DNA from: Bacteroidales bacterium | GTDB taxonomy: Bacteria; Bacteroidota; Bacteroidia; Bacteroidales; CAIWKO01 | Length of the DNA: 47,525 bases | Direction of reading: 5' to 3' | NCBI GenBank assembly: GCA_035389045.1 | Contig: DAOORA010000033.1 | Coordinates: 1 to 47,525, forward strand | Shown here: piece after piece, positions 10,569 through 32,415 of the stretch | Numbering within the stretch: position 1 is the stretch's first letter | Layout of the letters: each line of letters opens with the position of its first letter | The notes under the pieces: generated by a model | Databases searched by the model: none | What the model saw: only the letters and a program-made list of their open reading frames with translations | What the model was told of the DNA's origin: nothing | Program-made: the position numbers and the translations under genes

Positions 10569-10606
10569 TATTTGTTGATTTTAAAATACTTGTGATAGTA
10601 AGGCGA

Positions 10607-10614: not shown

Positions 10615-10761
10615 ACGATTTTTTGGGTTTAAATATGAAAATCGGGGAAAAAGCAAAAGTACGAAATAATGCACAATATTTCAACCGGAATTCACAATAG
10701 TGTTTTTCACTCCTGATCAAAAACATTTTGCCATAAGAAAACAAAGCTGTGCACACATAGT

Positions 10762-15117: not shown

Positions 15118-15139
15118 CGTTTATCAGATTATGATTATG

Positions 15140-15147
15140 CAAAAATA
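15140..15147 (-). promoter_or_regulatory. -7 promoter element (TATTTTTG) for the activase gene
   Basis: TAnnTTTG on the minus strand, 23 bp upstream of the TTG start. Confidence 0.45.
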
Positions 15148-15330
15148 ATTCTTTAAATGATTATTGATGGAATGAACATTACGGTATGAATTTAATTGAA
15201 TCAAATCAATTAATTAGAATTAAATCAAAATGTTTAGCGGGTATTTCATGATATTGTTTTTTGTTATATTTTTGACTTATATTTTTTGGTTTAAATAGAA
15301 GCAGTAAAAAAGTAAATTTTTCCTGAACGT

Positions 15331-16782
15331 ATGAATTGGCTTACATTGCTGGAAATTGCTTATACGATAATCCTTGTGCTGGCCTGTTACAGGATCATTT
15401 ATGACACACACAGTTCAAGCAAAACACTGGCATATTTGTTACTCGCTGTCTTCGTACCTGTTGCAGGCATATTGTTTTATTTTATTTTCGGTGTCAACTA
15501 CCGTAAGGAGTTTATTTTCAGCAAAAAGTTAATTGCTGATGAGAAAAGGCTCAGGGAACTGAACGAACAAATAGTTTCACCGGCTGAAAAGAATTTCAGA
15601 TTGAATACAGATGCGCCTGGCGATGAGGATGCGCTGGTAAAGTTGTTGCTTCATGATAACCAAAGCCCGCTCACCAATGGAAATTCCGTAAAACTCTTAA
15701 TAAATGGTGAAGAAAAATTCCCGGAAATCATTAAAGCGCTGGATGCTGCACGGAATCATATTCATATGGAATATTTCATTTATGAAGATGACAAGATTGG
15801 AAATATTATCAAGGAAATTTTAATAAAGAAGGCGGGTGAGGGCGTCATGGTGCGGTTGATCTATGATGATTACGGGAGCCGTTCTATCAGGAAAGAACTG
15901 GTGAACGAGCTCAGGAGCGGTGGGGTTGAAGCATACCCTTTCAACAGCATCAGTCTTCCTTTTTTTGCTAACAGAGTAAATTACCGAAACCACCGGAAAA
16001 TAATTATCATTGACGGACAGACTGGTTTCACAGGCGGTATCAATATCAGCGACAGGTATATCAATGAAGACCGGAATAATAATAAATTGTTCTGGCGCGA
16101 CACCCATCTGAGGATTGATGGCCCGGGAGTGTTCATTCTTCAGCATATTTTTCTCTGTGACTGGAATTTTTGCTCAAAACAGAAAATTGAAGCCGAAAAG
16201 ATTTATTTCAACCCGGTACCATCGTCAGGCCATAATGTCAGGGTACAGATCGCTGCCAGCGGCCCCGATTCCCCGAATTCAACCATCAAACTATCATTAC
16301 TGAAGGCTTTTACAATGTCCAAAAAGGAAATTCTTGTCACCACACCTTATTTTATTCCCAGCGGTTCTATTATGGATGTATTGAAAATAGCTGCACTCGG
16401 AGGGGTTTCGGTAAAGATGCTGTTGCCCGGAATTTCTGATTCAAAAATGGTCAATACTGCAGCCCATTCATATTACGGAGAACTGATGAGGGCGGGCGTG
16501 GAAATTTATTTGTACCATAAAGGTTTTATACATGCCAAAACCGTAGTTATTGATAATTTATTTGCTATTATCGGAACAGCCAACCTGAATCACCGGAGTT
16601 TTAATTTTGATTTTGAGGTGAATGCCCATATTTACAATGCTGATTTCTCGGAAAAAGTGCGGGAGGTTTTTTATGCCGACATTCGCGATGCCAAACGGCT
16701 TTGTTATGAGACATGGAAGACCCGGCCGGTTTATGTTAAAGCAGCGGAGCGGGTAGCACGACTGTTCAGTCCAGTATTTTAA
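15331..16782 (+). CDS. cls: Cardiolipin synthase (phospholipase D superfamily)
   Basis: Two N-terminal TM helices, two HKD motifs (RNHRKIIIID...GGINI and HAKTVVID...GTANL), WRDTH, SGPDS, TPYFIP. Confidence 0.93.
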   Translation: MNWLTLLEIAYTIILVLACYRIIYDTHSSSKTLAYLLLAVFVPVAGILFYFIFGVNYRKEFIFSKKLIADEKRLRELNEQIVSPAEKNFRLNTDAPGDEDALVKLLLHDNQSPLTNGNSVKLLINGEEKFPEIIKALDAARNHIHMEYFIYEDDKIGNIIKEILIKKAGEGVMVRLIYDDYGSRSIRKELVNELRSGGVEAYPFNSISLPFFANRVNYRNHRKIIIIDGQTGFTGGINISDRYINEDRNNNKLFWRDTHLRIDGPGVFILQHIFLCDWNFCSKQKIEAEKIYFNPVPSSGHNVRVQIAASGPDSPNSTIKLSLLKAFTMSKKEILVTTPYFIPSGSIMDVLKIAALGGVSVKMLLPGISDSKMVNTAAHSYYGELMRAGVEIYLYHKGFIHAKTVVIDNLFAIIGTANLNHRSFNFDFEVNAHIYNADFSEKVREVFYADIRDAKRLCYETWKTRPVYVKAAERVARLFSPVF

Positions 16783-16842: not shown

Positions 16843-18090
16843 ATGGATGATAATGAAACTTCGGGCACAATGAAAGCCGGTAAGGCACATGGAAGCAGGA
16901 TATTTGGTTTCAGCAGGAATATTTTTTTTACCGGGATAACCAGTTTTCTGACAGACACTTCTGTAAAGATGTTATATGCTGTTATGCCTATGTTCCTGCT
17001 TTCCATAGGGGCTTCAAAAACCAGCCTGTCATTAATTGAAGGAATAGCAGAAAGCACTGCATCCCTGGTTAAGGCGATGTCGGGCTTCTGGAGTGACAGG
17101 ACAGGCAGGAATAAGCCCTTTATACTTTCAGGCTACGGCCTTTCGGCGTTGATAATACCGCTTTATGTTTTTGTCTGTACCCCATTTCATGTACTGGTAC
17201 TTCGTTTTATTGAACGATTTGGCAAAGGTGTCAGGACAGCGCCCCGTGACAGCCTCATTGCTGGTTCTGTAATAAACGGGGAGACTGGTAAAAGTTTTGG
17301 ACTGCAGAAAGCGATGGACAACAGCGGTGCAATACTCGGGCCACTGCTCGCATTCGGATTGTTATCACTTTTTTCCGGGACAGACACACCTGAACTCCGC
17401 GACTATAAAATCATTTTCCTGTTGGCCGGGATTCCTGCCATACTGGCAATATTTGTCATTATTTTTGGGATAAAAGAAGCCAGGAAGCCTAAAAACGAGC
17501 GTTTTACCCGCTTTCATCTCGGGGATTTTTCACCGAAATATTATTTTTTTCTGGCAATAATTTTTATATTTACCCTGGGAAATTCAACCGATGCACTGTT
17601 GATGGTGAAGGCCAATGAGGTGGGGGTGAAAGTTGCATATATACCTCTTGTGTATCTTATTACCAATCTGGTTTCTGTTTTTTTCGCCATCCCGATAGGT
17701 AAATTATCCGACAGGATTGGTAAAGAACGGGTTTTGATCGCAGGTTTCCTTTTATATGCCCTGGTTTATTTCGGGTTCGGAATTTCGGGTTCTATCGGGG
17801 CTATTGTGCCGTTGTTTGCGTTGTATGGGTTTTATTCCGCCTGTACCGACGGAATTCAGAAAGCATTTGTTTCGGATCTGGTTGATAAAAACAAGAAAGG
17901 AACGGGGCTTGGAATTTATAATGCACTTCTTGGCATCACCTTATTGCCTGCAAGTCTGATAGCGGGAGCGCTATATGATAAAGTGAATTCATCGCTGCCT
18001 TTTTATTTCGGAGCAGCGACAGCGATAACAGCAACCACCATGATGATAATTTTTATACTAAGATATACAGGATATGCAAAATGTAAATAA
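16843..18090 (+). CDS. Major facilitator superfamily transporter
   Basis: About 12 hydrophobic segments and MFS motif A twice (GFWSDRTGRNK, GKLSDRIGKER). Start moved from GTG 16792 to ATG 16843 (or 16870) because a TAATTTTG -7 element lies at 16827-16834. Confidence 0.88.
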   Translation: MDDNETSGTMKAGKAHGSRIFGFSRNIFFTGITSFLTDTSVKMLYAVMPMFLLSIGASKTSLSLIEGIAESTASLVKAMSGFWSDRTGRNKPFILSGYGLSALIIPLYVFVCTPFHVLVLRFIERFGKGVRTAPRDSLIAGSVINGETGKSFGLQKAMDNSGAILGPLLAFGLLSLFSGTDTPELRDYKIIFLLAGIPAILAIFVIIFGIKEARKPKNERFTRFHLGDFSPKYYFFLAIIFIFTLGNSTDALLMVKANEVGVKVAYIPLVYLITNLVSVFFAIPIGKLSDRIGKERVLIAGFLLYALVYFGFGISGSIGAIVPLFALYGFYSACTDGIQKAFVSDLVDKNKKGTGLGIYNALLGITLLPASLIAGALYDKVNSSLPFYFGAATAITATTMMIIFILRYTGYAKCK

Positions 18091-18229
18091 TGCTGTAGGG
18101 AAGTTGATTTTATGTTAAGATTCATCATGCGAGAGAAACATAAAAGGCAATAGGAATATAATCAATATGAATTTATAGAATAGAATTCAATTTGCTTAGA
18201 GTTTTGTGCTATTTTATCTGCTATAATCT

Positions 18230-18261
18230 TTTGCCGGGATAAAAAAATAGTAGTACATTTG
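18230..18261 (+). promoter_or_regulatory. Bacteroidota sigma-A promoter of tRNA-Ala
   Basis: TTTG (18230-18233), 20-nt spacer, TACATTTG (18254-18261), 12 bp upstream of the tRNA. Confidence 0.75.
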
Positions 18262-18273
18262 CTTTCTCAATTT

Positions 18274-18346
18274 GGGGCGTTAGTTCAGTTGGCAGAACGC
18301 TAGGTTCGCAATCTAGAGATCACGGGTTCGACTCCCGTACGCTCCA
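18274..18346 (+). tRNA. tRNA-Ala(CGC), CCA not encoded
   Basis: Cloverleaf: acceptor GGGGCGT/ACGCTCC with the G3:U70 alanine determinant, D-arm GTTC/GAAC, anticodon arm CTAGG-TTCGCAA-TCTAG, T-arm ACGGG-TTCGACT-CCCGT, discriminator A. Confidence 0.96.
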
Positions 18347-18347
18347 C
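18335..18347 (+). repeat. attL core (tRNA 3' end, CCGTACGCTCCAC)
   Basis: Identical to 25777-25789 and contained within 25884-25900. Confidence 0.9.
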
Positions 18348-18350
18348 ACC

Positions 18351-18403
18351 AAAAACAAAAATAGCACTGTAAATCAAATGTTTGCAGTGCTTTTGTTTTT
18401 TTT
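18351..18403. terminator. Bidirectional intrinsic terminator after the tRNA, overlapping an IHF-like consensus
   Basis: Stem AGCACTGTAAA (18363-73)/TTTGCAGTGCT (18381-91), flanked by A-rich and T-rich runs. AATCAAATGTTTG (18372-84) fits WATCAANNNNTTR. Confidence 0.7.
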
Positions 18404-18454
18404 ACACTCCGATATAACACTCGGAAACGGTGTTTCACTAATTGTTTTTATAAA

Positions 18455-19000
18455 TTAAAAATCATTTTCAGATTTTGAATTCTTACTCATGAAATCTTTT
18501 AGATTTTGAATTAAGTTATCAATAATGATTAATGCTTGTTGTTGCATTTTTGCCCAGCATTTTTTTGAATGTAAGGTTCCCTGAAAATTTGGTTTTTCCT
18601 GATTAAAGGGGCCAAAATCATAGTACCGGATTCCGTTTGTTGGTGTTGTATGATAAACATTTGTCATCATGACATCAGTTGATGTAAAATCGGAAAAGGT
18701 ATATTTATACTTATTTTCTTTAACAATAATTGTAATGGTAAAGCTTAAACTCCCATGCAAATTTCCCAATGCAACCTTTCCTTTACCAAATAATTTGCCG
18801 GATTCCTTATCTGTAATTTCAAGTACATTTTTTGAATCATTAAAATTTTTTGCAAACCATGATTGTGCTGTACTGTAAAGAATATCTTTTGATACGGAAT
18901 CAATAGTTATAACTTCTGTTCTTTCATCAAATGAACTGGTTTGAGCATTTGTAATTATCGAACTTAATGCGATAAAAGATATAATAATAATTTTTTTCAT
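18455..19000 (-). CDS. DUF4468-like (TBP-like fold) secreted protein, copy 3
   Basis: Signal peptide ending NA|Q. SKDILYSTAQSWF..F...NVLEITDKESGKLFGKG...KENKYKYTFSDF pattern. Confidence 0.75.
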   Translation of the reverse strand: MKKIIIISFIALSSIITNAQTSSFDERTEVITIDSVSKDILYSTAQSWFAKNFNDSKNVLEITDKESGKLFGKGKVALGNLHGSLSFTITIIVKENKYKYTFSDFTSTDVMMTNVYHTTPTNGIRYYDFGPFNQEKPNFQGTLHSKKCWAKMQQQALIIIDNLIQNLKDFMSKNSKSENDF

Positions 19001-19067
19001 TTATACTCCTTTTAAAATAAATTTATAATTTTCATCATAAACAAATAAACAAATAAACAAATAAATT

Positions 19068-19586
19068 TTACCAATTTTCTATATTTGACGGTGATTTAAT
19101 GTATTTATCATAATCATTAATTATGTTTCCTAAATGAGCCTTTAAGCCATTCATAATTTCTTTTACTTGTTTTTTCACCATACAGCCAATTCTCGGGAAA
19201 TTATCACCTTCAAATGGTTCTATTTTTACACACATAGTACATTGCCCTCGATAGGAATCACAATGAACATTATCTATATTGATTTTATACCTGTTATCTT
19301 TCATTTTAAATGTTACAGTATAACCATAAAAATAAACAACATCAGGTGAAAAGAAATGCTTACTTTCAAAAAGTCCCTTAACCACAATATTGCCGGCCTC
19401 TTTGTCGTCATTTTGAATTACACTTTGAGCGGACTTCCATACATTGGCAATATACATTTTTGTATCAGAATAAATCTGTGCTTTGGTTTTAGCAATAGAA
19501 TCTGTTTTTTCCCATTTGAAATTTTCCTGTGCTTTTATGTTAATTGATATTAAAACACAAACAATAATAATAACTACTTTTCTCAT
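19068..19586 (-). CDS. DUF4468-like secreted protein, copy 2
   Basis: Probable start MRKVV at 19586. Signal peptide KA|Q. TKAQIYSDTKMYIANVWKSAQSVIQNDDKEAGNIVVKG...KDNRYKINI. Confidence 0.75.
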   Translation of the reverse strand: MRKVVIIIVCVLISINIKAQENFKWEKTDSIAKTKAQIYSDTKMYIANVWKSAQSVIQNDDKEAGNIVVKGLFESKHFFSPDVVYFYGYTVTFKMKDNRYKINIDNVHCDSYRGQCTMCVKIEPFEGDNFPRIGCMVKKQVKEIMNGLKAHLGNIINDYDKYIKSPSNIENW

Positions 19587-19597
19587 ATTTTTATTTA

Positions 19598-20107
19598 TTA
19601 CCAATTACTATTTACACCTTGATTCATTGCGGTTTCTAATGATTTTAGCATTGTTGTAACCTCTGAATTAATTGCGCTTTTAATATCAACAATATGTTTT
19701 CCAAAACCAGCTTTATTACAATCACCATCATTTACCAAACCATAACTCCACGCATCATTATATCCATAATGAATAAAATTTGAAAATTCATATTTATATT
19801 TTGCTTTTTTTAAATAAAGTTTGAAAATAAAAGTAATATGCCCTGTGAGATAAGCACTGAAACCACCATGTTTATATTTTATTGAGCCAGAGCCTTGTAT
19901 TATGCCGTTTTCTTTATCACTCATTTTAATAACATCACCTGGCGATTTAAATGTTTCAGATACCCATAAAACACCTCTTGAATATAGCTCATCTTTTGTT
20001 ATTGAGGTATCCTTTGTTGAAACTACACCTGTATATGATAGTGTTTGAGCCATCATGATTGGTGAAAGCAATATTAAAATGATGCTAATAATAATTACTT
20101 TTTTCAT
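19598..20107 (-). CDS. DUF4468-like secreted protein, copy 1
   Basis: Signal peptide MA|Q. TKDELYSRGVLWVSETFKSPGDVIKMSDKENGIIQGSG...KKAKYKYEFSNF. Confidence 0.78.
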   Translation of the reverse strand: MKKVIIISIILILLSPIMMAQTLSYTGVVSTKDTSITKDELYSRGVLWVSETFKSPGDVIKMSDKENGIIQGSGSIKYKHGGFSAYLTGHITFIFKLYLKKAKYKYEFSNFIHYGYNDAWSYGLVNDGDCNKAGFGKHIVDIKSAINSEVTTMLKSLETAMNQGVNSNW

Positions 20108-20170
20108 TTGATATTTTTATTACGACACTGCAATATACAAATAAATTATTTTTATACCGTATTTTTTTTA

Positions 20171-20488
20171 TTACAATTTTTCAATTATTGAAGGCATACA
20201 TTTATCCTCAACATTCGGATCAAGTACAAAATAAGCAATAAGAGTTCGTTTAAAATCATAAGTACCATCTATTCGTTCACTAATAACTAAATCAGTATAT
20301 CTGTGAACAGAATTTTTTATTTTCTCTTTAACCTCATCGTCAGTGTATATTATGCCGGTTTTCCTATCAACATACAAATCTTTTTCCTCATCAACAAGTT
20401 CATAACAAGTAACCGGCTCCAGTTCCTTTATTGATCTTTTACCGTTGGTTAAATCCTTTAAGAATTCAATCTTTTCTTTTCTGTTCAT
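20171..20488 (-). CDS. Hypothetical protein (105 aa)
   Basis: Overlaps the upstream gene in an operon-like arrangement. N-terminus MNRKEKIEFL is shared with the neighbour. Confidence 0.6.
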   Translation of the reverse strand: MNRKEKIEFLKDLTNGKRSIKELEPVTCYELVDEEKDLYVDRKTGIIYTDDEVKEKIKNSVHRYTDLVISERIDGTYDFKRTLIAYFVLDPNVEDKCMPSIIEKL

Positions 20489-20741
20489 CGTTGGTGTTTT
20501 TAGGTGCTGAATCTCTTAATTTTCTTAATCCTTCGATTGAAACGCCTGACCAGTCATATTTTATGTATTTATCTATTATCGGATCAGTTGTTTCATCAGT
20601 TATTGCTAATTCAATAGGTTTTCCATTAATAGTTATTGAGCCGTCAGGCTGTTCAACAATATACTGTATATTTAACCAGTCAGGATTGAATTTCCCCTCC
20701 CGGATCAGCATAAGCAATTCGATTTTATCTTTTCGATTCAT
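20466..20741 (-). CDS. Hypothetical protein (91 aa)
   Basis: Overlaps both neighbours. N-terminus MNRKDKIELL. C-terminal DWSGVSIEGLRKL motif. Confidence 0.6.
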   Translation of the reverse strand: MNRKDKIELLMLIREGKFNPDWLNIQYIVEQPDGSITINGKPIELAITDETTDPIIDKYIKYDWSGVSIEGLRKLRDSAPKNTNDEQKRKD

Positions 20742-21033
20742 TTGCTACACTGTTTTTAAGTTCATCAATAATATGATCCAGCTGTTCATCAGATAGCTTT
20801 TCATAATCCACGCTCAAACTGGTGGCCTGTAATGTAGGTACAGTATATTTGAGTAACTTTTCGATGAACAATAACCGATCTTTTGGCTCCAGTGCTTTTA
20901 TATCCGCCTCGATAGTATGCCAGTTGTTTTCTAAAACTTCATTGATCCGTTGCCGTAAATCAGCTGTTAATTTGTTCGGAGTTCCTGCCGGCCTCCCTGC
21001 CGGGTTGTTGGTTGTTCCTTTTTTTAATCCCAT
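20725..21033 (-). CDS. DUF5681-like / terminase small-subunit-like protein (102 aa)
   Basis: N-terminal KKGTTNNPAGRPAGTPNKLT motif, helical body, C-terminal DYEKLSDEQL. The TerS function is inferred. Confidence 0.55.
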   Translation of the reverse strand: MGLKKGTTNNPAGRPAGTPNKLTADLRQRINEVLENNWHTIEADIKALEPKDRLLFIEKLLKYTVPTLQATSLSVDYEKLSDEQLDHIIDELKNSVANESKR

Positions 21034-21130
21034 TACTTTAATATTTAAAATTTGTAAATCCTTGTTCTTTTCAAAAAATTCATCATTGCAACCATGAAAA
21101 TTTTCTTTTCATGTAAACTATTTTTTTATT

Positions 21131-21227
21131 TTTATTAAGTACCTTTATTAAGTACCTTTATTAAGAATATTATTTAAGCTGTTGTACTCCTGTCGTTGTT
21201 GGTGTCGTATTGCTGTCGTTGTTGGTG
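21131..21227. repeat. Iteron-like direct repeats (candidate origin)
   Basis: TTTATTAAGTACC x2 plus TTTATTAAG (21131-21165). CTGTCGTTGTTGGTG at 21190 and 21213. AT-rich stretch alongside. Confidence 0.55.
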
Positions 21228-21270
21228 CTGTTCGCTCCATGTTTCGATGGTATATTGATTGTTTCGGTGT

Positions 21271-21510
21271 TCATTGTTTGTTCAAGTAGTTGTTTACCGT
21301 TCCAACGGATATATTTAGACGCTTTGCGATCTGTCGCTGGCTCAATCCCTCCGCCCTCAAATCTTTAATTTGCATCTCGATAGTGTACTCACTTGCTTTC
21401 TTTTCCCAGTATGTTTTGATGTGCTGTTTAACTTTGTCCGGGTTTTTAAGTTTCCAGTTCTTTAGATACTCGTTTTTTAATTTTCTTGCTTTTTCTGATA
21501 AATTTTCCAT
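21271..21510 (-). CDS. Small helix-turn-helix DNA-binding protein (79 aa)
   Basis: C-terminal LRAEGLSQRQIAKRLNISVGTVNNYL HTH. Confidence 0.75.
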   Translation of the reverse strand: MENLSEKARKLKNEYLKNWKLKNPDKVKQHIKTYWEKKASEYTIEMQIKDLRAEGLSQRQIAKRLNISVGTVNNYLNKQ

Positions 21511-21539
21511 GTCATTAAATTTAAAGTTTATAAATATTT

Positions 21540-22517
21540 TTATTTAAGTTGCTGTTCTTTATTAAGCTGTTGTAATGCCCTTTGCCTCGCTTCAGCTTTC
21601 TTTTGTTTAAGTTGTTCAATCTGATATTTTCGTTTTTTGGTTTCCGCCAGCATGATTAAGTTTTCAAGTGTTATTTTTTTACTCAATCCAATGTACAGGC
21701 CTCGCATCTTATTATGTGAATAAACATGAATACCCCAGTTGTTTAACTGCATCGCCTCCAGCACTCGATCAGCATGATAACGGGTTTTATACTTTTTAAA
21801 CAGTTCTTTTATATCCGGGTGCATGGTGGCCGGGAGGTGCTTCACGCTGTTATATCCGAACGCCCGGCAAAGTATGTGTTCTTTATTTGTTTTGCTATAT
21901 GATTTTTTCCCCAGTATCGAACGAATACCAACGTAAAAAGCAAACTGCATCAAATCAAACTCGGTTTTATTATGATCCCGAAATTCAAATAATAAAGTTT
22001 TGTTAATGCTCGGATATGCTTCATTTGCCGGGATCGTTCGATCAATCTCTTTTCCACGCTTTAAACAGTAGTCAAAATCCCCATTAATGCCCAAAAAAGA
22101 ATATGCCTGTCGTATCTGATAAAATTCGATTGCTTTTTCCATGAAGTCAGTATCGGATTTGTTTACATTAATCTCATCGGTCATGACTTCATAACCAAAA
22201 ATATTTAGTATCTGATCGATTTGTGTTTCCGGGTTAAATTCTGTATCTGAAAATCCGTTATAATCCTCATCTAAATAGATTTTTTCACTGTCGATGTATC
22301 TTTGCATCATTTTATAAAGATCGTTCGTTAAATCGCCTTGTTTTCGATAATAACAATACATCATTTGCTTTGCTACATCGTAATATTCAAATTTTATTGT
22401 TTTCGCAAATCTGTAAATGCCATAACTGATAATTTCAGCGATGGTTTTTTGCCTGTCGATAAATAACTCCCGGAGCATGAACAAAGGAAACTGCAAATAT
22501 CTTTCATCGGTTCCCAT
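21540..22517 (-). CDS. Hypothetical protein, possible replication protein (325 aa)
   Basis: Probable start MGTDERYLQFP at 22517, overlapping the upstream gene. No catalytic motif recognised. The role is inferred from position only. Confidence 0.55.
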   Translation of the reverse strand: MGTDERYLQFPLFMLRELFIDRQKTIAEIISYGIYRFAKTIKFEYYDVAKQMMYCYYRKQGDLTNDLYKMMQRYIDSEKIYLDEDYNGFSDTEFNPETQIDQILNIFGYEVMTDEINVNKSDTDFMEKAIEFYQIRQAYSFLGINGDFDYCLKRGKEIDRTIPANEAYPSINKTLLFEFRDHNKTEFDLMQFAFYVGIRSILGKKSYSKTNKEHILCRAFGYNSVKHLPATMHPDIKELFKKYKTRYHADRVLEAMQLNNWGIHVYSHNKMRGLYIGLSKKITLENLIMLAETKKRKYQIEQLKQKKAEARQRALQQLNKEQQLK

Positions 22518-23043
22518 GCTCTGCCCTCCCAAAAGTCAAATAATACCACGTTATAAACTGCTCGAAGTCTTTAGCGATGAAGTACAGGCCTCCGCTGGCT
22601 TCGATGCTCCGCTGGTATTCCTTTTGTGCATCGCTTTGCTTATCGGCTCCGATCTTTACTTCAATCTTTACCGAACGGCCTTTGATGGTTGCCGATATAT
22701 CAGCGGTTCCACGTTGCCCGGCTGTCTTTATGTATTGAAGTGATCCGATGGTTCGCTGATGTCCCAGCACATCGGTACAGGTTTCCCGGCTGTCAATGAT
22801 CCGCCCGGTGCAGTTGATACGCTCGGCCTGGCCTCCAGTCAATCGAATATAATCTATTATGCACTTTGTTAATCCGTTCGCTGTCTTATCGGTGTATTTC
22901 GGAGCTGGGATATATTGCTTCGGCACGTTCGGATATTTTCGTGAGCTGTCATCGATATACAAATTTTTGAGTATCTGTATAGCTTTTTTCGTATCTTTGC
23001 CGGTGTCAGTCAACAAAGATTTTTTGGAGATGGTGTCTTTCAT
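22504..23043 (-). CDS. VRR-NUC-like PD-(D/E)xK nuclease (179 aa)
   Basis: GTADISATIKGRSVKIEVKIGADKQSDAQKEYQRSIEASGGLYFIAKDF motif. Start reassigned to ATG 23043 because the longer call overlaps the excisionase-like gene. Confidence 0.72.
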   Translation of the reverse strand: MKDTISKKSLLTDTGKDTKKAIQILKNLYIDDSSRKYPNVPKQYIPAPKYTDKTANGLTKCIIDYIRLTGGQAERINCTGRIIDSRETCTDVLGHQRTIGSLQYIKTAGQRGTADISATIKGRSVKIEVKIGADKQSDAQKEYQRSIEASGGLYFIAKDFEQFITWYYLTFGRAEHGNR

Positions 23044-23047
23044 GATG

Positions 23048-23344
23048 CTATCTCCTTTTATTTTTATGTGATAACGATTCCAGCACCTCCGATTTTCTGA
23101 ATATGATTGTACGCTCCGCCTGTGAGTAAGGTACACGCCCGGAGTTTTTAATCTTTTGTGCCGTCGGTGTACTAACTTGTAAAAATTCCGCCAGTCCTTT
23201 GATGCCATAAACGTATGGTTCGGGATCGGCTGGAGCTGGCTCCTGCGGAGGTGTTCCGATTAATGTTTCAATTTTCTGCAATAATGCCAGCATCTCGGAA
23301 ACTGCCAGCGGTAACTGTTCAAAGGATAAGATTTTTGTTTCCAT
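23048..23344 (-). CDS. DUF3853-like excisionase/winged-HTH protein
   Basis: YVYGIKGLAEFLQVSTPTAQKIKNSGRVPYSQAERTIIF pattern, and an LSFEQLPLAV N-terminus typical of Bacteroidota Xis-like proteins. Confidence 0.72.
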   Translation of the reverse strand: METKILSFEQLPLAVSEMLALLQKIETLIGTPPQEPAPADPEPYVYGIKGLAEFLQVSTPTAQKIKNSGRVPYSQAERTIIFRKSEVLESLSHKNKRR

Positions 23345-23396
23345 GTTATATTTGATTAAAAATAAAACAAAGATTTTATCCGTTTGAACATTGTAA

Positions 23397-23412
23397 ACCA
23401 GTTATAACTGGT
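23397..23412. promoter_or_regulatory. Perfect 16-bp palindrome ACCAGTTATAACTGGT upstream of the xis-like operon
   Basis: Exact self-complementary sequence in the 76-bp gap between two genes. Confidence 0.55.
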
Positions 23413-23420
23413 AACAAGTT

Positions 23421-24257
23421 TTATTCAAATTCACTTGCATAAGTTTCATTTAACTTTTGCAGGTCTTTTTCAGCTTGTTGTTTGCCTTTTTCCGATAAGT
23501 GTTGAATAACACTTTCAATTAAAGAAATTCGATTTTTTATTCTTTTTTGTGTGCATGGTGTCGGTTTTCCTGTTCTGTTTTGAACATCGGAAAAGCGAAT
23601 AAACTCCTGATATAACTTGTCGCCCGATGTAAGTCCGTATTTTGTAATAATGTTTTTTGCATTATCTCTTGTTATTACATCATATTCATAAACGTAAATT
23701 AAAGCGATCTGCTTTATTTTTAATTTTTCATGCAGTTTTTTATATTTACTTATGTCATCAGTCGTTTTTTCGGGTGCTTCATCGTGCTGATCTCCCATCA
23801 GAAAACATTGATATTTTATCATGTCAAAAACGTAAACAATACGAACAAATATCCCGGTGCTGATGGTGTCAAAGATCGTGTTCTTAATCATGAATTTATC
23901 AAAATATCTCTTTAGTATTTCATCTTTTGAGTAATTGAGCAATATAAACCCAGCGATATTGTCTATTATGATTTCGCTGTTTTCTATATTATAAAACGAA
24001 TAATCAATAAGTTTTTTTGTGCTTTTTTTTTCCATTTCAATAAATGCTGGTTTGCTCATGGTGTCTTTCATTCCAGCATAAAAACTTTTTTTTATGGACT
24101 CAAAACAAAATGTAGGTACTAAAGTTTCCTTTTTAAGTTCGGTTTCAATGAATGTAACCAGGTCGGAAAAATTATCTTTATTGTAATTTGAGTTATATTT
24201 TTCGTTACAATTTTCAGCGATTAAATCAAGTGCTTCATTTTGCATTATTTTCATCAT
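23421..24257 (-). CDS. Hypothetical protein (278 aa) coupled to the integrase
   Basis: ATGA overlap with the integrase stop codon. No recognised motif. Confidence 0.65.
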   Translation of the reverse strand: MMKIMQNEALDLIAENCNEKYNSNYNKDNFSDLVTFIETELKKETLVPTFCFESIKKSFYAGMKDTMSKPAFIEMEKKSTKKLIDYSFYNIENSEIIIDNIAGFILLNYSKDEILKRYFDKFMIKNTIFDTISTGIFVRIVYVFDMIKYQCFLMGDQHDEAPEKTTDDISKYKKLHEKLKIKQIALIYVYEYDVITRDNAKNIITKYGLTSGDKLYQEFIRFSDVQNRTGKPTPCTQKRIKNRISLIESVIQHLSEKGKQQAEKDLQKLNETYASEFE

Positions 24258-25606
24258 ATCTCATTAAATTTATTCATTGATAACTGCTTTTGCTTATTTA
24301 CAATTTTTGTATAAAAATCCATTGTCTTATGGTCTTTGTGGCCAGTCCACTTCATTATGATCTCCGCCGGGATATTCAAATACAGTGCATTAATGATGAA
24401 TGTTTTCCGGGCTGTATGGTGTGTAAGTAGCTGATATTTTTTATAAGTTGTTTCAATCCTTTTGTTGCCTTTGTATTCGATGTAGGTTTCATCGCTTTCA
24501 AATCCGGCCTCTTTTCCAGCATCTTTGATATACTTGTTAAACTTTTGGTTGCTCGGTACAGGAAACGCCCTGTTGTTCTTTAAATCGATATTCTTGTATT
24601 TTTCCCATATTGCTAAAGCATATTTATTGAGTTCGATAATCAGCTTGTCATCGGTTTTGATGGTCAAAATTTCAATATACTGGTTTCCGCTGTCATCGGC
24701 TTTGAAGTCGTTTTTCTTTAAATTGTGAACATCTGAAAATCTCAATCCTGTTAAACAACAAAAGCAATAAATATCTCTTATCTGCTCCAGTCGCTTGTTG
24801 CCGGAAAAATCAAAGTTGATGAAGTGCTGGAGTTCGCTCCATGATAAGAAAACAATATTTTTCTGAAAATCTGCAATGTCAGTACCTTTGAATTTATACT
24901 CAAATGTTTTGTACTCAAGATTTTTATTGTATTTCTTTTTTGTTGCCCAGTTCATAAACCATTTAAACAAGATCATGTACTTGTAATTTGTGGTGTTATT
25001 GAGCTTTTTTTCCTTTTGCAAGTATTCTATGTAGTTTTGAAAAAAGTCCTCTGTAATGTCAGGAAACTGCAAAATTCGGCCATATTTTAAACAATAATCC
25101 TCCACGTGAGATTTTAAAGTTTTGATTTTTTTGATAGTGCTTTCAGTCCAGTTTTTCCGCTTGCTTTCGGTGTCGATGAAAAGCTGAATATAATCCGGGA
25201 TTGATACTGGTCTATTTAATTCCGCTGTGGTTTCATCGATAATGCCCTCTTTTTTCTTTAGCTGTTTCGATAATTCACTCCACAAATAACGCTTCGTGAT
25301 TGTCAAATTCAATTTAACTGCATCATTGTATATTTCCGGCAAAAGTATATCAATATGGTTAATCCTCTTGTTGATGGTTCCGGCGGAGGTTCCATCGCTG
25401 TTGAAATTATTGTTCTTTACCCTCCCGGCTTCATCGTTCCATTTGTCGCTGTCGATCCTGTACCCTATCGGATAAATAACACGCTGGCCATCGAATTTAA
25501 ACTCGACAAGTATCGGTACATGGTCGGTTATAACCTGGCCTGTATTCTTGTCTTTGCGTTTTTCTAATTTGAAACGCTTAATCTCTAAACTTTTTCTTGC
25601 TTTCAT
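24254..25606 (-). CDS. int: Tyrosine recombinase/integrase (Bacteroidota type with arm-binding and SAM-like domains)
   Basis: Catalytic motifs TGLRFSDV, IKT, HHTARKTF, WTGHKD, FYTK. N-terminal IGYRIDSDKWN arm domain. Confidence 0.95.
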   Translation of the reverse strand: MKARKSLEIKRFKLEKRKDKNTGQVITDHVPILVEFKFDGQRVIYPIGYRIDSDKWNDEAGRVKNNNFNSDGTSAGTINKRINHIDILLPEIYNDAVKLNLTITKRYLWSELSKQLKKKEGIIDETTAELNRPVSIPDYIQLFIDTESKRKNWTESTIKKIKTLKSHVEDYCLKYGRILQFPDITEDFFQNYIEYLQKEKKLNNTTNYKYMILFKWFMNWATKKKYNKNLEYKTFEYKFKGTDIADFQKNIVFLSWSELQHFINFDFSGNKRLEQIRDIYCFCCLTGLRFSDVHNLKKNDFKADDSGNQYIEILTIKTDDKLIIELNKYALAIWEKYKNIDLKNNRAFPVPSNQKFNKYIKDAGKEAGFESDETYIEYKGNKRIETTYKKYQLLTHHTARKTFIINALYLNIPAEIIMKWTGHKDHKTMDFYTKIVNKQKQLSMNKFNEI

Positions 25607-25631
25607 GATGGAGTGTTTTCTTTTTACACTC

Positions 25632-25663
25632 CAAAATTACACTCTATTTTTGTTTTATGCAAA
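25632..25663 (-). promoter_or_regulatory. Integrase promoter
   Basis: Minus-strand TTTG (25663-25660), 20-nt spacer, TAATTTTG (25639-25632), 26 bp upstream of the ATG. Confidence 0.65.
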
Positions 25664-25776
25664 TTAATTTTAATTTATTTTGTTTTTTGTTGAAAACATT
25701 ATCTATCTTTGTGTTGGTGCAATATAGGGATATAATAAATTAAAATTTTATCTTTGATTAAATCATGTAAATAGAG

Positions 25777-25789
25777 CCGTACGCTCCAC
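25777..25789 (+). repeat. attR core (copy of the tRNA-Ala 3' end)
   Basis: CCGTACGCTCCAC, identical to 18335-18347. Confidence 0.9.
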
Positions 25790-25804
25790 GGAGTGGAGCG
25801 TACC

Positions 25805-25834
25805 AAGGCAGCGAAAGCTGCCTTTTTTGTTTTG
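25805..25834 (+). terminator. Intrinsic terminator
   Basis: AAGGCAGC-GAAA-GCTGCCTT followed by TTTTGTTTT. Confidence 0.8.
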
Positions 25835-25883
25835 CAAAACAAAAGGAGCCGAAGTTTATCCCGATGAGCCTGCTACATCGGGA

Positions 25884-25902
25884 ACTCCCGTACGCTCCAC
25901 CA
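25884..25902 (+). repeat. Third copy of the tRNA-Ala 3' end (17-bp match, followed by CCA)
   Basis: ACTCCCGTACGCTCCAC matches 18331-18347 and reads ...CTCC-A-CCA. Confidence 0.85.
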
Positions 25903-26418
25903 TAGTGGAACATGGCAAAATATGTTCCTCATTTTTTTTACCTTCTCTCGCCTTCCCCTTTCATTACTAATAATCCAGAACATCGCTTCATTCATTTACG
26001 GTGTTCGAACTGCTCCATCCTTAAAAATGATACCATTTGGGAAAATAGAAGCCATACCAGAATAAAACAACAAAATGTATCAAGCAGCGGGATGGCATTT
26101 CTTTGAATAGAATTCAAAGGACTAAAAAACTTTATATAATTGATAATATATACAAATTCAATATAATGCTGATTTTAAGCACCCGCCTTATCACTGAAGC
26201 GTTTTGAAAATCAATTTGCCCGCCGGAATTAAGGGCGAACAAATTGATTATCTCATCACACATTATTATTATTAAAATATTTAATCAAATTATTAGAGTT
26301 TCAAGACTTTGTGATTTTTTTAATCAAACAACATTATTTGTAAAATTTATTCAAAAATATTTGCTAATTAACGATTATTTTTATACTTTTATGTAAGTTT
26401 TTTATAAAATCTCACAAT

Positions 26419-29400
26419 ATGAAAAAAAATATCATCACACTGGCGACCATCCTTGTATTAACCGGATGGATTAATATGACATTTGCGCAAAATGTTTATA
26501 TTCCTGATATCAATTTTAAAGCGGTTTTGGTAAGCGATTCGAATATCAATACGAACCATGATGGAGAAATACAGTTTTCGGAGGCAAACTCTTTTCTTGG
26601 AACGCTGTACGTTTACAATTCCAACATTTCTGATCTTACAGGCATAGAGGCGTTTACTAATATCTCGGTTTTAAACTGCGCCATGAACAATTTGTCGAGT
26701 CTGGATCTGACTTACAATACCGCACTTGTTAATTTGTCGTGCAACAACAACCAGTTGACAAGTATTGATGTTTTACATTGTGCAGCCCTGACTTCAATTG
26801 ATTGTAATAATAATCTGTTGACAAGTTTGGATGTATCTGTTTGTACTGCACTCATGTTATTGAATTGCAGCAATAACCAGATAACGGCTCTTGATTTATC
26901 TGCCAATACGGCTCTTACTGTTTTAAGTGTTCATTTCAATCAGTTATCTGGTTTGAATGTGTCTTCCCATACGGCAATTACTAATTTATCCTGTAATAAC
27001 AATCTGCTGACAAGCATCGATATATCCGGTTGTTCTGCTCTTACTGCTTTGGAATGTGGTATCAATCAACTAACGAGTTTGGATGTTTCCACCAATACAG
27101 ACCTTATACAACTTTACTGCTACCAAAACCAAATAACAAGTTTAGATGTGTCAAATAATCCGTATCTTACCGAATTGGTCGCTTATGTGAATTATTTGAC
27201 AGCTTTGGATATCTCAGCCAATACCTCTGTTAATAATCTTTGGTGCTATTCCAATCATTTAACAAGTTTGAATGTAAAAAATGGAAACAATGACAATTTT
27301 ACATTTTTCAGAGCAGCCAACAACCCTAACCTGAAATGTATACAAGTAGATGATGCAGTCTGGGCAAATGCAAACTGGGCTAATTATAAAGACGCCGGAG
27401 CAATCTTTACAGAGTATCCCGCTTTAACAGCGAGTGTGAGTATTTCTGTCAACCCGCCAGCCACTGTATGTCCGGGAACTGATGTGACATTTACAGCAAC
27501 TCCAATAAACGGGGGGATATCGCCGACATTTCAGTGGCTGGTGAACGGTAATAATGTGGGCTCCAACAGTTCTGTTTATTCAGACTCTACACTTGAAAAT
27601 TATGATCAGGTGCGATGTATTATGTATTCAAGCGAAACTTGTCTGATTGCAAACCCTGTATATGATTCTGTTATTGTTTCGATTTTTCCATCTGTAGCAG
27701 TTAATCCGGGAACGTACGGTCCGGTATGCACTAATACAGCTCCATTTGAGTTGAACGGAATTCCTCCCGCCGGCATTTTCTATGGTCCGGGTGTAACAGA
27801 TAGTATGTTTTATCCTTTGTTAGCTCAGCCTGGTTCGCATAATATTTTGTATGAATATAACGACGGAAACTGCACATATACGGCATCTGCCAATATTATC
27901 GTCTATAATCCTCCGCTTGTCAGCGCAGGACAGGATATTACCATGGTTTGTACAGATAGCATAGCAATTCTGAACGGCTTTTCATCTGATTCCCTGGTAA
28001 ATTATTATTGGGTTGCAGAGGACACCAGTGCAATTATTTTAAATGCAAATACGCAAACGGCAACAGTTTACTCTCCGGGAAAATATATTCTGACTGTCTT
28101 AAATAATTTGACGGGCTGCTATGCTTGCGATACGGTACAGGTATTTCCTGACACATGCGGCATTCAGCCGTACTATCCACCTCCGCCCAATGGTAAAAAT
28201 GATTCTTTGATAGGCCCGGAATTAAGCCAGTTGTATCTGTACCCACAGAATATGGATAGTGTGGAAAATGTTTTTATGTTGGCCGGAGATTCCGTTTATA
28301 TTGAAGTAATTATAATACAAGGACAGGAAAATTCTGCCCGTACTATGCTTCAATCATTGGGTATGACCGATACCGTTCAACACGGAGATTCGACTTTAGT
28401 TGTCTCCGGAAAATTTCCGATAGGGAATTTGCCACAGCTTAATCAATACCCGGAACTTTTTGTTTATGCCCGGCCGATGTTTCCACCTATAGCATCAAGC
28501 GGAATAGCATATACGCTTGGAGATTCGTTTCAACATTCTGATATAGGCAGAAGTGCTTTTGGATTAGACGGACAGGGCGTGAAAGTGGGTGTGTTATCCG
28601 ATAGCTACAGAACTATTCCGGGCCGTCCTGACTCGACTGATGTGTTGAACGGTGACTTGCCGGGGTTTGGAAATCCGGATACTAATTTAGTGCCCGTGCA
28701 GATTCTAAAAGATTATCCTTATGGAAGAAGAACAGATGAAGGAAGAGCCATGCTGCAGATAATCCATGATATCGCTCCTAAGTCCACGCTCGCCTTCCGC
28801 ACAGGTTTTCTCACACCAGAAAATTTCGCTCTGGGTATCAGGGAACTGCAGGCTTCAGGCTGCAATATTATTTGCGACGACATCACATACATTACCGAGC
28901 CATTCTTTACAGACGGCGCTGTTGCTGAAGCAGTGAATGATGTCACAGCTCTGGGAGTTGCCTATTTCACTGCCGCAGGAAATTTTAATTCCAATTCATA
29001 TGAAGCCACATTCTCTCCTGTGTCCACACCATCAGGCATCACAGGATTCGCACATGATTTTGGCGGTGGAGATATTTTTCAAAGCGTTACACTTGCTCCG
29101 GGTAATTATACTATAGTTCTTCAGTGGGAAGATGATTTTTATTCCCTCTCCAAATCGGCAACCGGTGCTGCAAATGATTTTGATATTTATTTAACCGATG
29201 ATGCCGGCAAAATACTTTTGGGTTATAACAGAGTTAATATCGGCAACGATCCATACGAAGTATTACCGGTTTCGGTTAGATCATCGACCAATGCAAATAT
29301 TATGATCGTCAGAGCAAATCCGGTAGGAGCAAATGCCAGATTAAAATATATTGTTTACCGCGGTAATCTTACCCAGAATGAATATCTGACCGGAACATCC

Positions 29401-32400: not shown

Positions 32401-32415
32401 GTTATTATTCAATAA
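26419..32415 (+). CDS. T9SS-secreted multidomain subtilase (1998 aa): internalin-like LRRs, Ig-like domains, S8/S53-like protease, MBG-like domains, CTD
   Basis: Signal peptide FA|Q. LRRs (L-CNNNQLTSLDVS). VKVGVLSDS, DEGRAMLQIIHDIAP, IICDD, TAAGN, FSSRG, KPDFVAP, FYGTSAAAPH. C-terminal IHPNP...KGLYFIRL...KLVIIQ. Confidence 0.88.
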   Translation: MKKNIITLATILVLTGWINMTFAQNVYIPDINFKAVLVSDSNINTNHDGEIQFSEANSFLGTLYVYNSNISDLTGIEAFTNISVLNCAMNNLSSLDLTYNTALVNLSCNNNQLTSIDVLHCAALTSIDCNNNLLTSLDVSVCTALMLLNCSNNQITALDLSANTALTVLSVHFNQLSGLNVSSHTAITNLSCNNNLLTSIDISGCSALTALECGINQLTSLDVSTNTDLIQLYCYQNQITSLDVSNNPYLTELVAYVNYLTALDISANTSVNNLWCYSNHLTSLNVKNGNNDNFTFFRAANNPNLKCIQVDDAVWANANWANYKDAGAIFTEYPALTASVSISVNPPATVCPGTDVTFTATPINGGISPTFQWLVNGNNVGSNSSVYSDSTLENYDQVRCIMYSSETCLIANPVYDSVIVSIFPSVAVNPGTYGPVCTNTAPFELNGIPPAGIFYGPGVTDSMFYPLLAQPGSHNILYEYNDGNCTYTASANIIVYNPPLVSAGQDITMVCTDSIAILNGFSSDSLVNYYWVAEDTSAIILNANTQTATVYSPGKYILTVLNNLTGCYACDTVQVFPDTCGIQPYYPPPPNGKNDSLIGPELSQLYLYPQNMDSVENVFMLAGDSVYIEVIIIQGQENSARTMLQSLGMTDTVQHGDSTLVVSGKFPIGNLPQLNQYPELFVYARPMFPPIASSGIAYTLGDSFQHSDIGRSAFGLDGQGVKVGVLSDSYRTIPGRPDSTDVLNGDLPGFGNPDTNLVPVQILKDYPYGRRTDEGRAMLQIIHDIAPKSTLAFRTGFLTPENFALGIRELQASGCNIICDDITYITEPFFTDGAVAEAVNDVTALGVAYFTAAGNFNSNSYEATFSPVSTPSGITGFAHDFGGGDIFQSVTLAPGNYTIVLQWEDDFYSLSKSATGAANDFDIYLTDDAGKILLGYNRVNIGNDPYEVLPVSVRSSTNANIMIVRANPVGANARLKYIVYRGNLTQNEYLTGTSTVVGQANSASAITVGAANFSYMDPVTHQCHDTPVYTASFSSRGGTVMNSVDRHKPDFVAPNGFKTTVNLGGMKCAGDISSSYNFYGTSAAAPHAAAVGALLQQAKKKYYDQSFTPEQIRSILQSTAADMDAPGYDVNSGYGLIDAYAALSAFAAPTPNLISLDVPAGITPGTVSFTLTVTGQFFTNNSIIYFRDIALTTTFIDDTHLSAVIPDFVGNPPIKVFNPAITPDSLDGGFSNTLYFFAPVRKNVLIRADNKVKKFGEALPLFTATVTVDGHSPENEGLTLNDLDLDTIHYTLPAGISSMSDVGQYFIDPGAGPFGTELTELYNYIFITHSNYYNYGFTSPGLLTINKMPLLITPNDKTVLFGDKIDGTEFTYTYSYDTSGIAQGDLAGFLNNLKNIYEPSIAKEIVLIDDRDLYNGATLSEADLANLAFISGSRGIANGSRGIANGSRGIANGTTPDTTYVVDITYQSLFEYNINDSAAYLYDSVLMINGSRGIVNGSRGIVNSESLVDGSALINGSRGIANGSRGIANGSRGIVNNEELDGVSNTNTAVIIHEADLDTPENPDSVFQLLSISAISGLTSGEHWIVPGGFLSSNFEVHYGLGHLFIDPYEIKVQVKDTSTLYGTAPSFTSVISGYQYDDNASTVFTGNIIYTPPGNTLFTVGTHTITPGGLTLIQPTNYYLIYVNGILNVTPLTEYCTYGQGFWGNAGNMDCSGNTVTTIIPALLTTALVNGCGTRKITIGTTEATCLIDKLPSGGPSEKLPVGDVSCANATGNQYLKNGRFKSNLLGQEMALALSVRLQPALGSLRITGQFITTSAASACVNGLPVQGTKHTYELKKSVINYLSTNNTVWDLIKIANQGLGDALPPHAPSLNDIGSTINALLNAFANCKILDGFSNKKSLMAEVDEATESSNNSLFIHPNPTSGNTTISFLAVDGNEATIDIYSVCGSHVSRVLCGTISENGIYSVEVDCSSFSKGLYFIRLMVDGETSVGKLVIIQ

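Follow-up and report, generated by a model that had tools for sequence, protein, structure and literature searches.

A stretch of 47,525 nucleotides from a Bacteroidales bacterium (contig DAOORA010000033.1 of assembly GCA_035389045.1), here called the window, carries a 7.4-kb integrated element whose genes all lie on the minus strand between two copies of the 3′ end of a tRNA-Ala(CGC) gene. The element belongs to an unnamed and probably new family of small (5.5–9.6 kb) integrative elements of Bacteroidales and other Bacteroidota, and there is very little doubt that element and family are real and intact. Their shared genes include a tyrosine integrase gene (int), a gene for a candidate replication initiator, p325, and a gene of the DUF5681 family whose relatives in phages commonly lie directly before the gene for the large terminase subunit (TerL). 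The best-supported mechanism for the movement of the element, and one that we consider probable though by no means secure, is that of a minimalist satellite dependent on a helper phage.

Phage satellites influence both gene flow and resistance to phages, and well-defined families of them are, in the accessible text of the surveys, almost confined to Proteobacteria and Firmicutes; a 2024 review names no satellite family of Bacteroidota (PMC11389934). The family described here is a candidate satellite lineage in an ecologically dominant phylum, with clear borders, a five-gene core, and many tRNA sites. It offers candidate functions for two protein families, DUF5681 as a small terminase (TerS) and the orphan p325 family (1178 representative clusters in a profile search at E ≤ 1e-3) as a replication initiator, and its combination of int, HTH_17, p325, and DUF5681 genes can be used as a search model. 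Phages that carry a DUF5681 gene directly before TerL would be candidate helpers.

Distribution and Organization of the Element Family

The element has twelve open reading frames (ORFs), all open and tightly packed, in the order and single direction given by a first-pass annotation of the window, which had proposed a minimal phage satellite. Family assignment with Pfam, PHROGs, and NCBIfam recognized no capsid, portal, terminase, tail, lysis, or relaxase family on the twelve ORFs, in agreement with that annotation as far as it went, and no primase or helicase family. No capsid-morphogenesis or packaging-interference gene was recognized with Pfam or PHROGs either, the 91-, 105-, and 278-aa ORFs being without a family.

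A scan of one genome per species, the synteny check that the first-pass annotation had proposed, returned 22 loci with relatives of p325, nearly all in metagenome-assembled genomes (MAGs) of Bacteroidota, and the same gene set recurs across them. As far as the contigs reach, the shared order is int, a variable gene, an HTH_17 or DUF3853 gene, a nuclease gene, p325, and a DUF5681 gene. Synteny was judged by BLAST and profile searches of the ORFs from these loci, many of which are cut by contig ends, and within that limit the nuclease was seen at 14 and the DUF5681 protein at 10 of the 22. All ten related loci that hold a tRNA gene have it at the cargo end and on the opposite strand, and all ten have a 12–49-nt copy of the tRNA 3′ end 135–225 nt upstream of int. 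The ten complete relatives (5.5–9.6 kb) target eight tRNA species. Synteny and borders thus bear out the earlier suggestion of a little-described family in Bacteroidota, the hijacking of phages that went with it being a plausible mode of mobilization that is weighed below.

Pfam recognized no capsid, portal, terminase, or relaxase gene on the 104 ORFs of the ten complete relatives, and for this reason the element is not taken for a deletion remnant of a prophage. The first-pass annotation had raised the possibility that homologs of this gene set are confined to full prophages; instead, p325 has no match in 50,697 phage records searched with four family members as queries, and the module is therefore not a piece of known phages. 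Neither p325 nor the 102-aa DUF5681 protein has a tblastn match in 72,556 plasmid records. In IMG/VR, a scan relying on short conserved peptides found only one weak p325 relative, of 21% identity. A word-indexed protein search returned 65 homologs of p325, none with a Pfam domain, and the six with a named organism come from MAGs of Bacteroidales, Paludibacter, and Salinivirgaceae. Occurrence is patchy: relatives turned up in 7 of 300 further genomes from the order, and a sample of 400 further genomes from across the phylum contained none. No description of the family was found in the literature, where the supplementary datasets of the paper on virion-encapsidated integrative mobile elements (VEIMEs), which possibly hold related elements, were not read.

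Outside the shared genes, conservation across the family does not extend to the small ORFs, and the cargo varies between members. Two of the ten complete relatives carry, behind the DUF5681 gene, a gene whose product is a homolog of phage virion structural proteins by PHROGs: a 721-aa protein in one (L022:11227-13392; phrog_15220, E 3e-47) and a 618-aa protein in the other (L023:12487-14343; phrog_23570, E 1e-11). The C-terminal half of the 721-aa protein is 25–27% identical to Polaribacter phage proteins annotated as virion structural and to a Tenacibaculum phage protein. Both homologs may be components that a satellite carries with it for host range or for the tail.

Integration Site and Borders

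The tRNA-Ala(CGC) gene of the first-pass annotation, the integration target, is upheld by ARAGORN and by an Rfam search, which returned nothing besides this tRNA (Table 1). The exact direct repeat at the two borders is CCGTACGCTCCAC; the copies at the tRNA end are indeed exact, but they measure 13 nt and not the 14 first given, one base shorter at each end. Since a 13-mer repeat is expected about 0.6 times by chance in 9 kb (our own arithmetic), the support for these borders comes from the position of the repeat at the tRNA end and 171 nt 5′ of int, an arrangement that recurs in 10 of 10 relatives that hold a tRNA gene. The GC fraction is about 0.28–0.40 inside the element, compared with 0.41–0.49 in its flanks. 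Pairs of ACACTC motifs at both ends are candidate arm-binding sites of the integrase.

A third copy of the tRNA end, 17 nt long, lies at 25884-25900. When the genomes of relatives were searched for an empty site, the sole informative locus was in G018, a genome from the same family, in which tRNA-Ala directly precedes the homolog of the window from 25901 onward, with the DNA upstream of that tRNA likewise homologous to the window. Because the tRNA-Ala of that genome directly abuts this homolog, the copy at 25884-25900 is read as the displaced native tRNA end, and foreign DNA therefore extends to 25883. The 94 nt left between the attR core and the native end then imply that the tRNA-Ala site has been used at least twice. 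A terminator-like hairpin on the plus strand stands behind each of the three copies (18363-18391, 25805-25824, and 25907-25928). On the simplest reading, two successive insertions took place, the earlier one being now reduced to 94 nt and the present element lying inside its left junction. A perfect 11-nt palindrome is also present at 25779-25803.

The DUF5681 Protein and the Small-Terminase Position

The 102-aa protein, called TerS-like in the first-pass annotation, matches Pfam DUF5681 (PF18932) at E 9e-4 and 20.2 bits, under the cut-off of 27.5. Members of the family above that cut-off include the proteins of L023 (35.8 bits) and L010 (27.8 bits) and a paralog on contig C53 of the same genome (34.0 bits), and most of the best 120 of 493 homologs carry a precomputed PF18932 match. 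An AlphaFold2 model built from 57 sequences, with a predicted local distance difference test score (pLDDT) of 73 and a predicted template modeling score (pTM) of 0.34, has a disordered N-terminal arm of Gly, Pro, and basic residues (NNPxGRPxGxPNK) followed by four helices. A profile search of PDB sequences gave nothing relevant. DUF5681 is mentioned in a single paper among those found, which reports it from a virion proteome as a protein without explanation.

Relatives of the protein were sought in IMG/VR, where 133 were found and 80 loci kept. A TerL homolog starts no more than 1.5 kb downstream on the same strand at 53 of the 80, and no more than 112 nt downstream at 46; nine loci are too near a contig end for this context to be judged. 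By PHROGs, the sampled loci continue with the large terminase subunit and then a portal gene, an HNH endonuclease gene lying between in one of them. The neighboring TerL proteins are of several types (phrog_2/2472, phrog_3717, and phrog_38) and 409–810 aa long. Profile–profile comparison with hhalign matched a profile of element proteins to one of these phage proteins at 99.7% (E 4.5e-26) over 82 of 102 columns, a match that spans the arm and three helices. As far as sequence comparison can tell, the 102-aa protein is a member of a family that holds the small-terminase position in many phages, and this placement suggests that it may act as a small terminase. Its kinship with phage proteins encoded before TerL is the part of the TerS-like call that stands; no significant fold match and no convincing match to a named TerS family came with it.

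DUF5681 genes are also met in other settings. The nearest relatives on viral contigs (L032–L036; 37–44% identity) are not beside TerL and have as neighbors integrases, an 867-aa DNA polymerase/primase, and primase-like genes; they may represent additional lineages of small elements with the same underlying frame. As a separate observation, a lone DUF5681 gene lies between an operon of giant proteins and an integrase gene in the temperate Bacteroides phages BF1-TP2 and BKO1-TP3 and in two IMG/VR contigs (L062 and L092). The giant proteins are about 2000–5500 aa long and DarB-like, and this placement is unlike the classical small-terminase position.

The Putative Replication Module

p325 is a candidate replication initiator by gene position, by its winged-helix domain, and by the origin-like repeats beside its gene. 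Its AlphaFold2 model (pLDDT 90.5, pTM 0.84) contains a winged helix at residues 184–282 followed by a long C-terminal helix, and VIA-align, which matched this part of the model only and left the N-terminal 180 residues without an assignment, places the winged helix at Z 6–7 against kleisin, ORC/Cdc6, and CAP-type domains, the fold being a common one. The best row of a BFVD search is labeled “replication initiator protein” (E 0.03, not significant), and the ESM Atlas gave only unnamed nearest clusters, labeled 52–78% “Viruses,” which serves as a lead only. No sequence homology to known replication initiator (Rep) families was detected. Iteron-binding initiators of plasmids and phages combine winged-helix DNA-binding domains with cognate direct repeats next to their gene; p325 offers one such domain and the repeats described below. 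The Rep call of the first-pass annotation thus gains from the winged helix and from the repeats and the slot equivalence set out below, but not from fold searches, in which p325 gave weak results.

The start of p325 is overlapped by the nuclease gene, and the two are conserved together. The nuclease was first described as a 234-aa ORF; it most likely starts at 23043 and has 179 aa, since its relatives are 151–179 aa long. Across 13 sequences, the D...ExK residues D115, E128, and K130 do not vary. Matches to the Pfam families VRR_NUC and Hjc were found in 3 of 13 members, all below cut-off, and the PHROG matches, to PD-(D/E)XK and Holliday-junction-resolvase families (phrog_824/93/5702), are weak; in the PDB, an entry named “Nuclease” (4qbo) matched at no better than E 1.3.

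Between the DUF5681 gene and the accessory 79-aa HTH gene, the repeat-rich gap noted in the first-pass annotation is indeed found: the 237 nt from 21034 to 21270 hold a 23-nt unit in two copies (21180-21225) and an AT-rich 13-nt unit in 2.7 copies (21131-21165). Of 17 cases, 15 have tandem repeats of period 10–15 directly downstream of p325, compared with 23 of 497 control windows (450-nt windows elsewhere in the same loci; Tandem Repeats Finder score ≥40, at least two copies). Eight of the 17 cases have two tiers, units of 11–12 nt and then AT-rich units of 12–13 nt such as CTTAATAAAGGTA. The sequence of the repeats varies from one family member to another, which would be expected of initiator-specific sites. 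Replication would need host enzymes, because the element encodes no helicase or primase recognized by the family searches.

A second element in the same genome supports the reading of p325 as a Rep. It is about 5.2 kb long, lies at a tRNA-Met gene with a 13-nt core (contig C53, locus L031, ~10436-15734), and has the order int, a 389-aa protein, HTH_17, a 149-aa protein, a 327-aa rolling-circle Rep of the Phage_CRI family (E 6e-16), and two tandem DUF5681 genes, so that a recognized Rep fills the slot of p325. Neither its 149-aa nor its 327-aa protein showed homology to the nuclease or p325. At the far att copy of this second element stands an ORF for a 586-aa serine recombinase, which adjoins that copy and overlaps it in part.

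Comparison With Known Satellites and Mobilizable Elements

The first-pass annotation had likened the element to phage-inducible chromosomal islands (PICIs) and to PICMIs (minimalist islands, likewise phage-inducible and chromosomal); the layout does resemble both, but the element falls outside both published definitions because it has no primase. In the accessible text of the PICI survey, the core components are an integrase, an AlpA/Stl-type regulator, a primase-replicase, a small terminase homolog, and a capsid-morphogenesis or packaging-interference gene, along with induction by a helper phage and packaging in its particles; more than 99.9% of PICIs come from Firmicutes or Proteobacteria, and that text nowhere contains the word “Bacteroid” (de Sousa et al., 2023, PMC10085698). 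Like PICIs and the Staphylococcus aureus pathogenicity islands (SaPIs), the element has int at one end, an AlpA/Xis-type helix-turn-helix (HTH) protein, a predicted replication module with an adjacent origin-like region, a candidate TerS-like gene, and accessory genes, and has no tail or lysis genes. The integrase is present, as is a protein of the AlpA/Stl type whose regulatory role is predicted, and the primase-replicase is absent. The element differs from PICIs further in being about half their usual size, in having all genes on one strand, in lacking a recognized capsid-size or packaging-interference gene, in holding a nuclease and a winged-helix protein where PICIs have a primase-helicase, and in belonging to a phylum that the accessible survey text leaves without PICIs (PMC10085698).

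PICMIs of Vibrionaceae are defined, as the accessible text of their description has it, by a primase of the DUF3987/DUF5906 type and by a fis-adjacent integration site, and the corresponding SatelliteFinder model asks for an integrase, AlpA (PF05930 or PF12728), and a primase (DUF3987 with PF13148, DUF5906 with PF19263; PMC10803314). The element shares with them a minimal content of int, an AlpA-type HTH gene (PF12728), and a replication gene, together with the lack of capsid remodeling genes, from which packaging as concatemers would be expected; a primase is absent from its twelve ORFs, and its site is not next to fis. Its 278-aa gene overlaps int by 4 nt, like the essential iolg of PICMI115, and is a positional analogue with no homology shown (PMC10803314). 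The accessible PICMI text never uses the word “terminase,” and a review states that PICMI mobilization seems to depend solely on a DNA motif (PMC11389934), whereas the family described here carries a TerS-like gene.

VEIMEs, by the accessible part of their description, are capsid-less, integrase-bearing elements of marine bacteria, some of them integrated in Flavobacteria, and some carry AlpA, a plasmid-like Rep, and homologs of the small terminase whose nearest kin are in co-occurring phages; they are defined operationally, as concatemers inside virions (PMC9618062). The element resembles them in small size, an integrase, a candidate TerS-like gene, and the lack of capsid genes. It differs in its setting, having been met in sludge and digester runs whereas VEIMEs are marine, and an overlap between the two is possible.

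A different kind of likeness exists to the NBU1/NBU2 and Tn4555-type elements, which are likewise small and tRNA-targeting, with a tyrosine integrase and an HTH_17/DUF3853 partner. These elements of Bacteroidota encode a Mob relaxase and an origin of transfer (oriT) and do not replicate. The element, by contrast, has a predicted replication module and a candidate TerS-like gene, and it is not of this type because no relaxase or Mob family is found on its twelve ORFs or on the 104 ORFs of its relatives, although its sequence may yet hold an oriT. A review names NBU1/NBU2 and Tn4555-type elements as integrative mobilizable elements of Bacteroides (PMC11389934).

Proposed Mode of Mobility and Its Alternatives

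As a helper-dependent satellite, the element would excise at the 13-nt core in the tRNA-Ala 3′ end through the tyrosine integrase and the HTH_17/DUF3853 protein of Xis/AlpA-like type, perhaps assisted by the 278-aa protein encoded in overlap with int. p325, translationally coupled to the PD-(D/E)XK nuclease, would bind the tandem repeats beside its gene and start replication with host enzymes; the DUF5681 protein would mark the DNA for the large terminase of the helper; and multimers of the 7.4-kb unit would be packed into helper capsids, with the three secreted DUF4468 proteins traveling as cargo. A bolder form of this proposal, which we put forward only tentatively, holds that DUF5681 is an unrecognized and widespread small-terminase family and that the element represents the first PICI-like lineage of Bacteroidales with a two-part initiator. 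The nuclease would then nick or process the origin while the winged-helix protein binds the repeats, a pair that would replace the primase-helicase and yield multimers, and sister lineages, built on that int-Xis-[Rep]-DUF5681 frame as well, would rely on Reps of the rolling-circle or primase type.

Several observations weigh against the satellite proposal. None of the best 120 of 493 homologs of the 102-aa protein is named a terminase, and only one of ten family proteins matches a TerS PHROG (E 7e-4), the other PHROG matches being of unknown function. With the monomer model of the protein, a BFVD search gave a best E of 0.11, and a comparison with 48,161 chains by VIA-align reached no more than Z 4.0, the small terminase 7joq standing at rank 33 with Z 3.0. 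A TerS function is suggested by gene position in viral contigs that are all uncultured and many of them near-duplicates, and 18 of the 80 loci have no TerL nearby. DUF5681 genes lie beside an integrase gene in the Bacteroides phages BF1-TP2 (PQ571263.1, 61091-61387) and BKO1-TP3 (PQ571269.1), and in BF1-TP2, the one record read through, the gene is 19 kb from a terminase-like gene. For p325, Foldseek against the PDB reached a best E of 0.27, a weak match to ORC/Cdc6/Cdt1 winged helices, and a sequence search of solved structures detected no relative. The repeats could serve as an origin, as a pac site, as both, or as an operator. The host genome, 96% complete, has no large terminase by PF03237 and PF03354, the two TerL families searched, and hence no evident resident helper.

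The search for an attP junction that the first-pass annotation had suggested was carried out on Logan assembled contigs of four public runs (X1, X2, X3, and X5), labeled as sludge or digester metagenomes and compared over 17300-26800. One contig of X1, which may be the source sample, spans the whole integrated element, and the contigs of the four runs held the integrated form only, with no excised circle, empty site, or concatemer, which again weighs on the negative side; two skips in X3 have only 20–22 nt on their shorter side and do not amount to a supported attP or empty-site joint. Because assembled contigs drop rare forms, a missing attP says nothing against excision. Eight short whole contigs of relatives showed no terminal overlap suggestive of circles.

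The alternative that deserves most attention, although we judge it rather unlikely, is that the element is no satellite but an integrative, plasmid-like hitcher, which excises and replicates and is moved by conjugative elements that act in trans on an unrecognized oriT, by vesicles, or by natural transformation, the DUF5681 protein then being a small DNA-binding regulator or accessory factor. An integrase with Arm-DNA-bind_5 and SAM_5 domains and a DUF3853/HTH_17 partner is the chassis of Bacteroides mobilizable elements, and the element has the same pair. The DUF5681 protein, whose function is only predicted and whose gene lies in the lysogeny region of two Bacteroides phages, would also fit, as would a repeat region that might just as well act as oriT or operator and the fact that neither helper phage nor packaged form was seen with the two TerL profiles and in the assembled contigs. 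Yet transfer of this kind has to be reconciled with twelve ORFs in the window and 104 in ten relatives that include no relaxase or Mob gene, with the absence of p325 and the DUF5681 protein from the plasmid records, with DUF5681 relatives that abound in viral contigs and stand directly before TerL in 53 of 80, and with the virion structural protein homologs of two relatives.

That the element is a decayed prophage or satellite remnant, or an immobile genomic island that has kept its integrase, is very unlikely: small size, the lack of structural genes, and the 94-nt remnant alongside, which does show decay at this site, are offset by twelve open and tightly packed ORFs on one strand, an exact att core, invariant catalytic residues of the nuclease, the recurrence of the compact gene set with intact att repeats at eight other tRNA species, and the absence of p325 from all 50,697 phage records (four queries). 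We give hardly any credence to an autonomous, very small virus-like element, filamentous or with an unrecognized capsid, whose structural proteins would be hidden among the unannotated small ORFs. The Phage_CRI Rep of the tRNA-Met element is of the gpII type of filamentous phages, the 91-, 105-, and 278-aa ORFs are without a family, and the “Viruses” labels of the ESM Atlas clusters nearest p325 (52–78%) are a lead in that direction; but neither a morphogenesis ATPase nor a coat-like gene was recognized by Pfam and PHROGs, family-wide conservation is lacking for the small ORFs, and cargo differs from member to member.

Gene Content and Neighboring Features

The coordinates of the genes and sites are collected in Table 1. 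The first-pass annotation had described the 98-aa protein as Xis-like, and Pfam agrees: DUF3853 is matched at E 1e-9 and 38.5 bits (cut-off 22.1) and HTH_17 at E 2e-4, below cut-off, and relatives match HTH_17 above cut-off, one of them Phage_AlpA. The start of the 278-aa gene overlaps the int stop codon at 24254-24257. Overlap with int occurs in relatives too (4 nt in L024, 7 nt in L018), the proteins in that slot not being conserved. The three DUF4468 paralogs have hydrophobic N-termini, and phrog_4002, which all three match, is a PHROG without known function.

Table 1. Coordinates of the element, its genes, and its insertion site in the window.
Feature	Coordinates	Strand	Evidence or remark
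tRNA-Ala(CGC), integration target	18274..18347	+	ARAGORN, sole tRNA in window; Rfam 68 bits
attL core, last 13 nt of tRNA	18335..18347		Repeat analysis
Terminator-like hairpin supplied by the element, just behind tRNA	18363..18391	+	
Left arm-type repeat, ACACTC pair 13 nt apart	18396..18422		85% identical to 25618-25644
Cargo 3, 181-aa secreted DUF4468 protein, TATA-binding protein (TBP)-like fold	18455..19000	-	Pfam E 1e-14; phrog_4002 E 1e-21
Cargo 2, 178-aa DUF4468 protein	19068..19604	-	Pfam E 5e-10; phrog_4002 E 8e-15
Cargo 1, 169-aa DUF4468 protein	19598..20107	-	Pfam E 2e-10; phrog_4002 E 1e-19; homolog in L003
105-aa small protein, paralog of 91-aa protein	20171..20488	-	No family
91-aa small protein, paralog of 105-aa protein	20466..20741	-	No family
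102-aa DUF5681 protein, candidate small-terminase-like packaging specificity factor	20725..21033	-	Pfam, hhalign, model
Origin-like (or pac-like) non-coding region	21034..21270	.	Tandem repeats, short palindrome
79-aa HTH protein, sigma-70 region 4/HTH_24-like	21271..21510	-	Accessory: only here and in L020
325-aa protein p325, candidate replication initiator	21540..22517	-	No Pfam/PHROG/NCBIfam match
179-aa predicted PD-(D/E)XK nuclease, VRR-NUC/Hjc-like	22504..23043	-	Invariant D115, E128, K130
98-aa DUF3853/HTH_17 protein, predicted Xis/AlpA-like excision factor or activator	23048..23344	-	Pfam
278-aa protein	23421..24257	-	No family; homolog only in L016
450-aa tyrosine integrase	24254..25606	-	Arm-DNA-bind_5, Phage_int_SAM_5, Phage_integrase above cut-off; phrog_1 E 8e-29
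Right arm-type repeat, ACACTC pair 13 nt apart	25618..25644		85% identical to 18396-18422
attR core, 13-nt copy of tRNA 3′ end	25777..25789		Repeat analysis; 171 nt upstream of int start
94-nt remnant of earlier insertion	25790..25883		Own terminator 25805-25824

Homologs of the 91- and 105-aa paralogs, which overall range from about 70 to 105 aa, stand three in tandem behind the DUF5681 gene of one relative (L023:11822-12482). PADLOC, run on 33 proteins, reported no known defense system, one protein having two weak matches (E 3e-4 each).

The insertion is flanked by an ORF for a transporter of the major facilitator superfamily (MFS) type and by the gene for a 1998-aa secreted protein. The latter, at 26419-32415 and directly right of the insertion site, has N-terminal repeats resembling leucine-rich repeats (LRRs), a middle part that by eye is subtilase-like, and GSRGIANGSRGI repeats.

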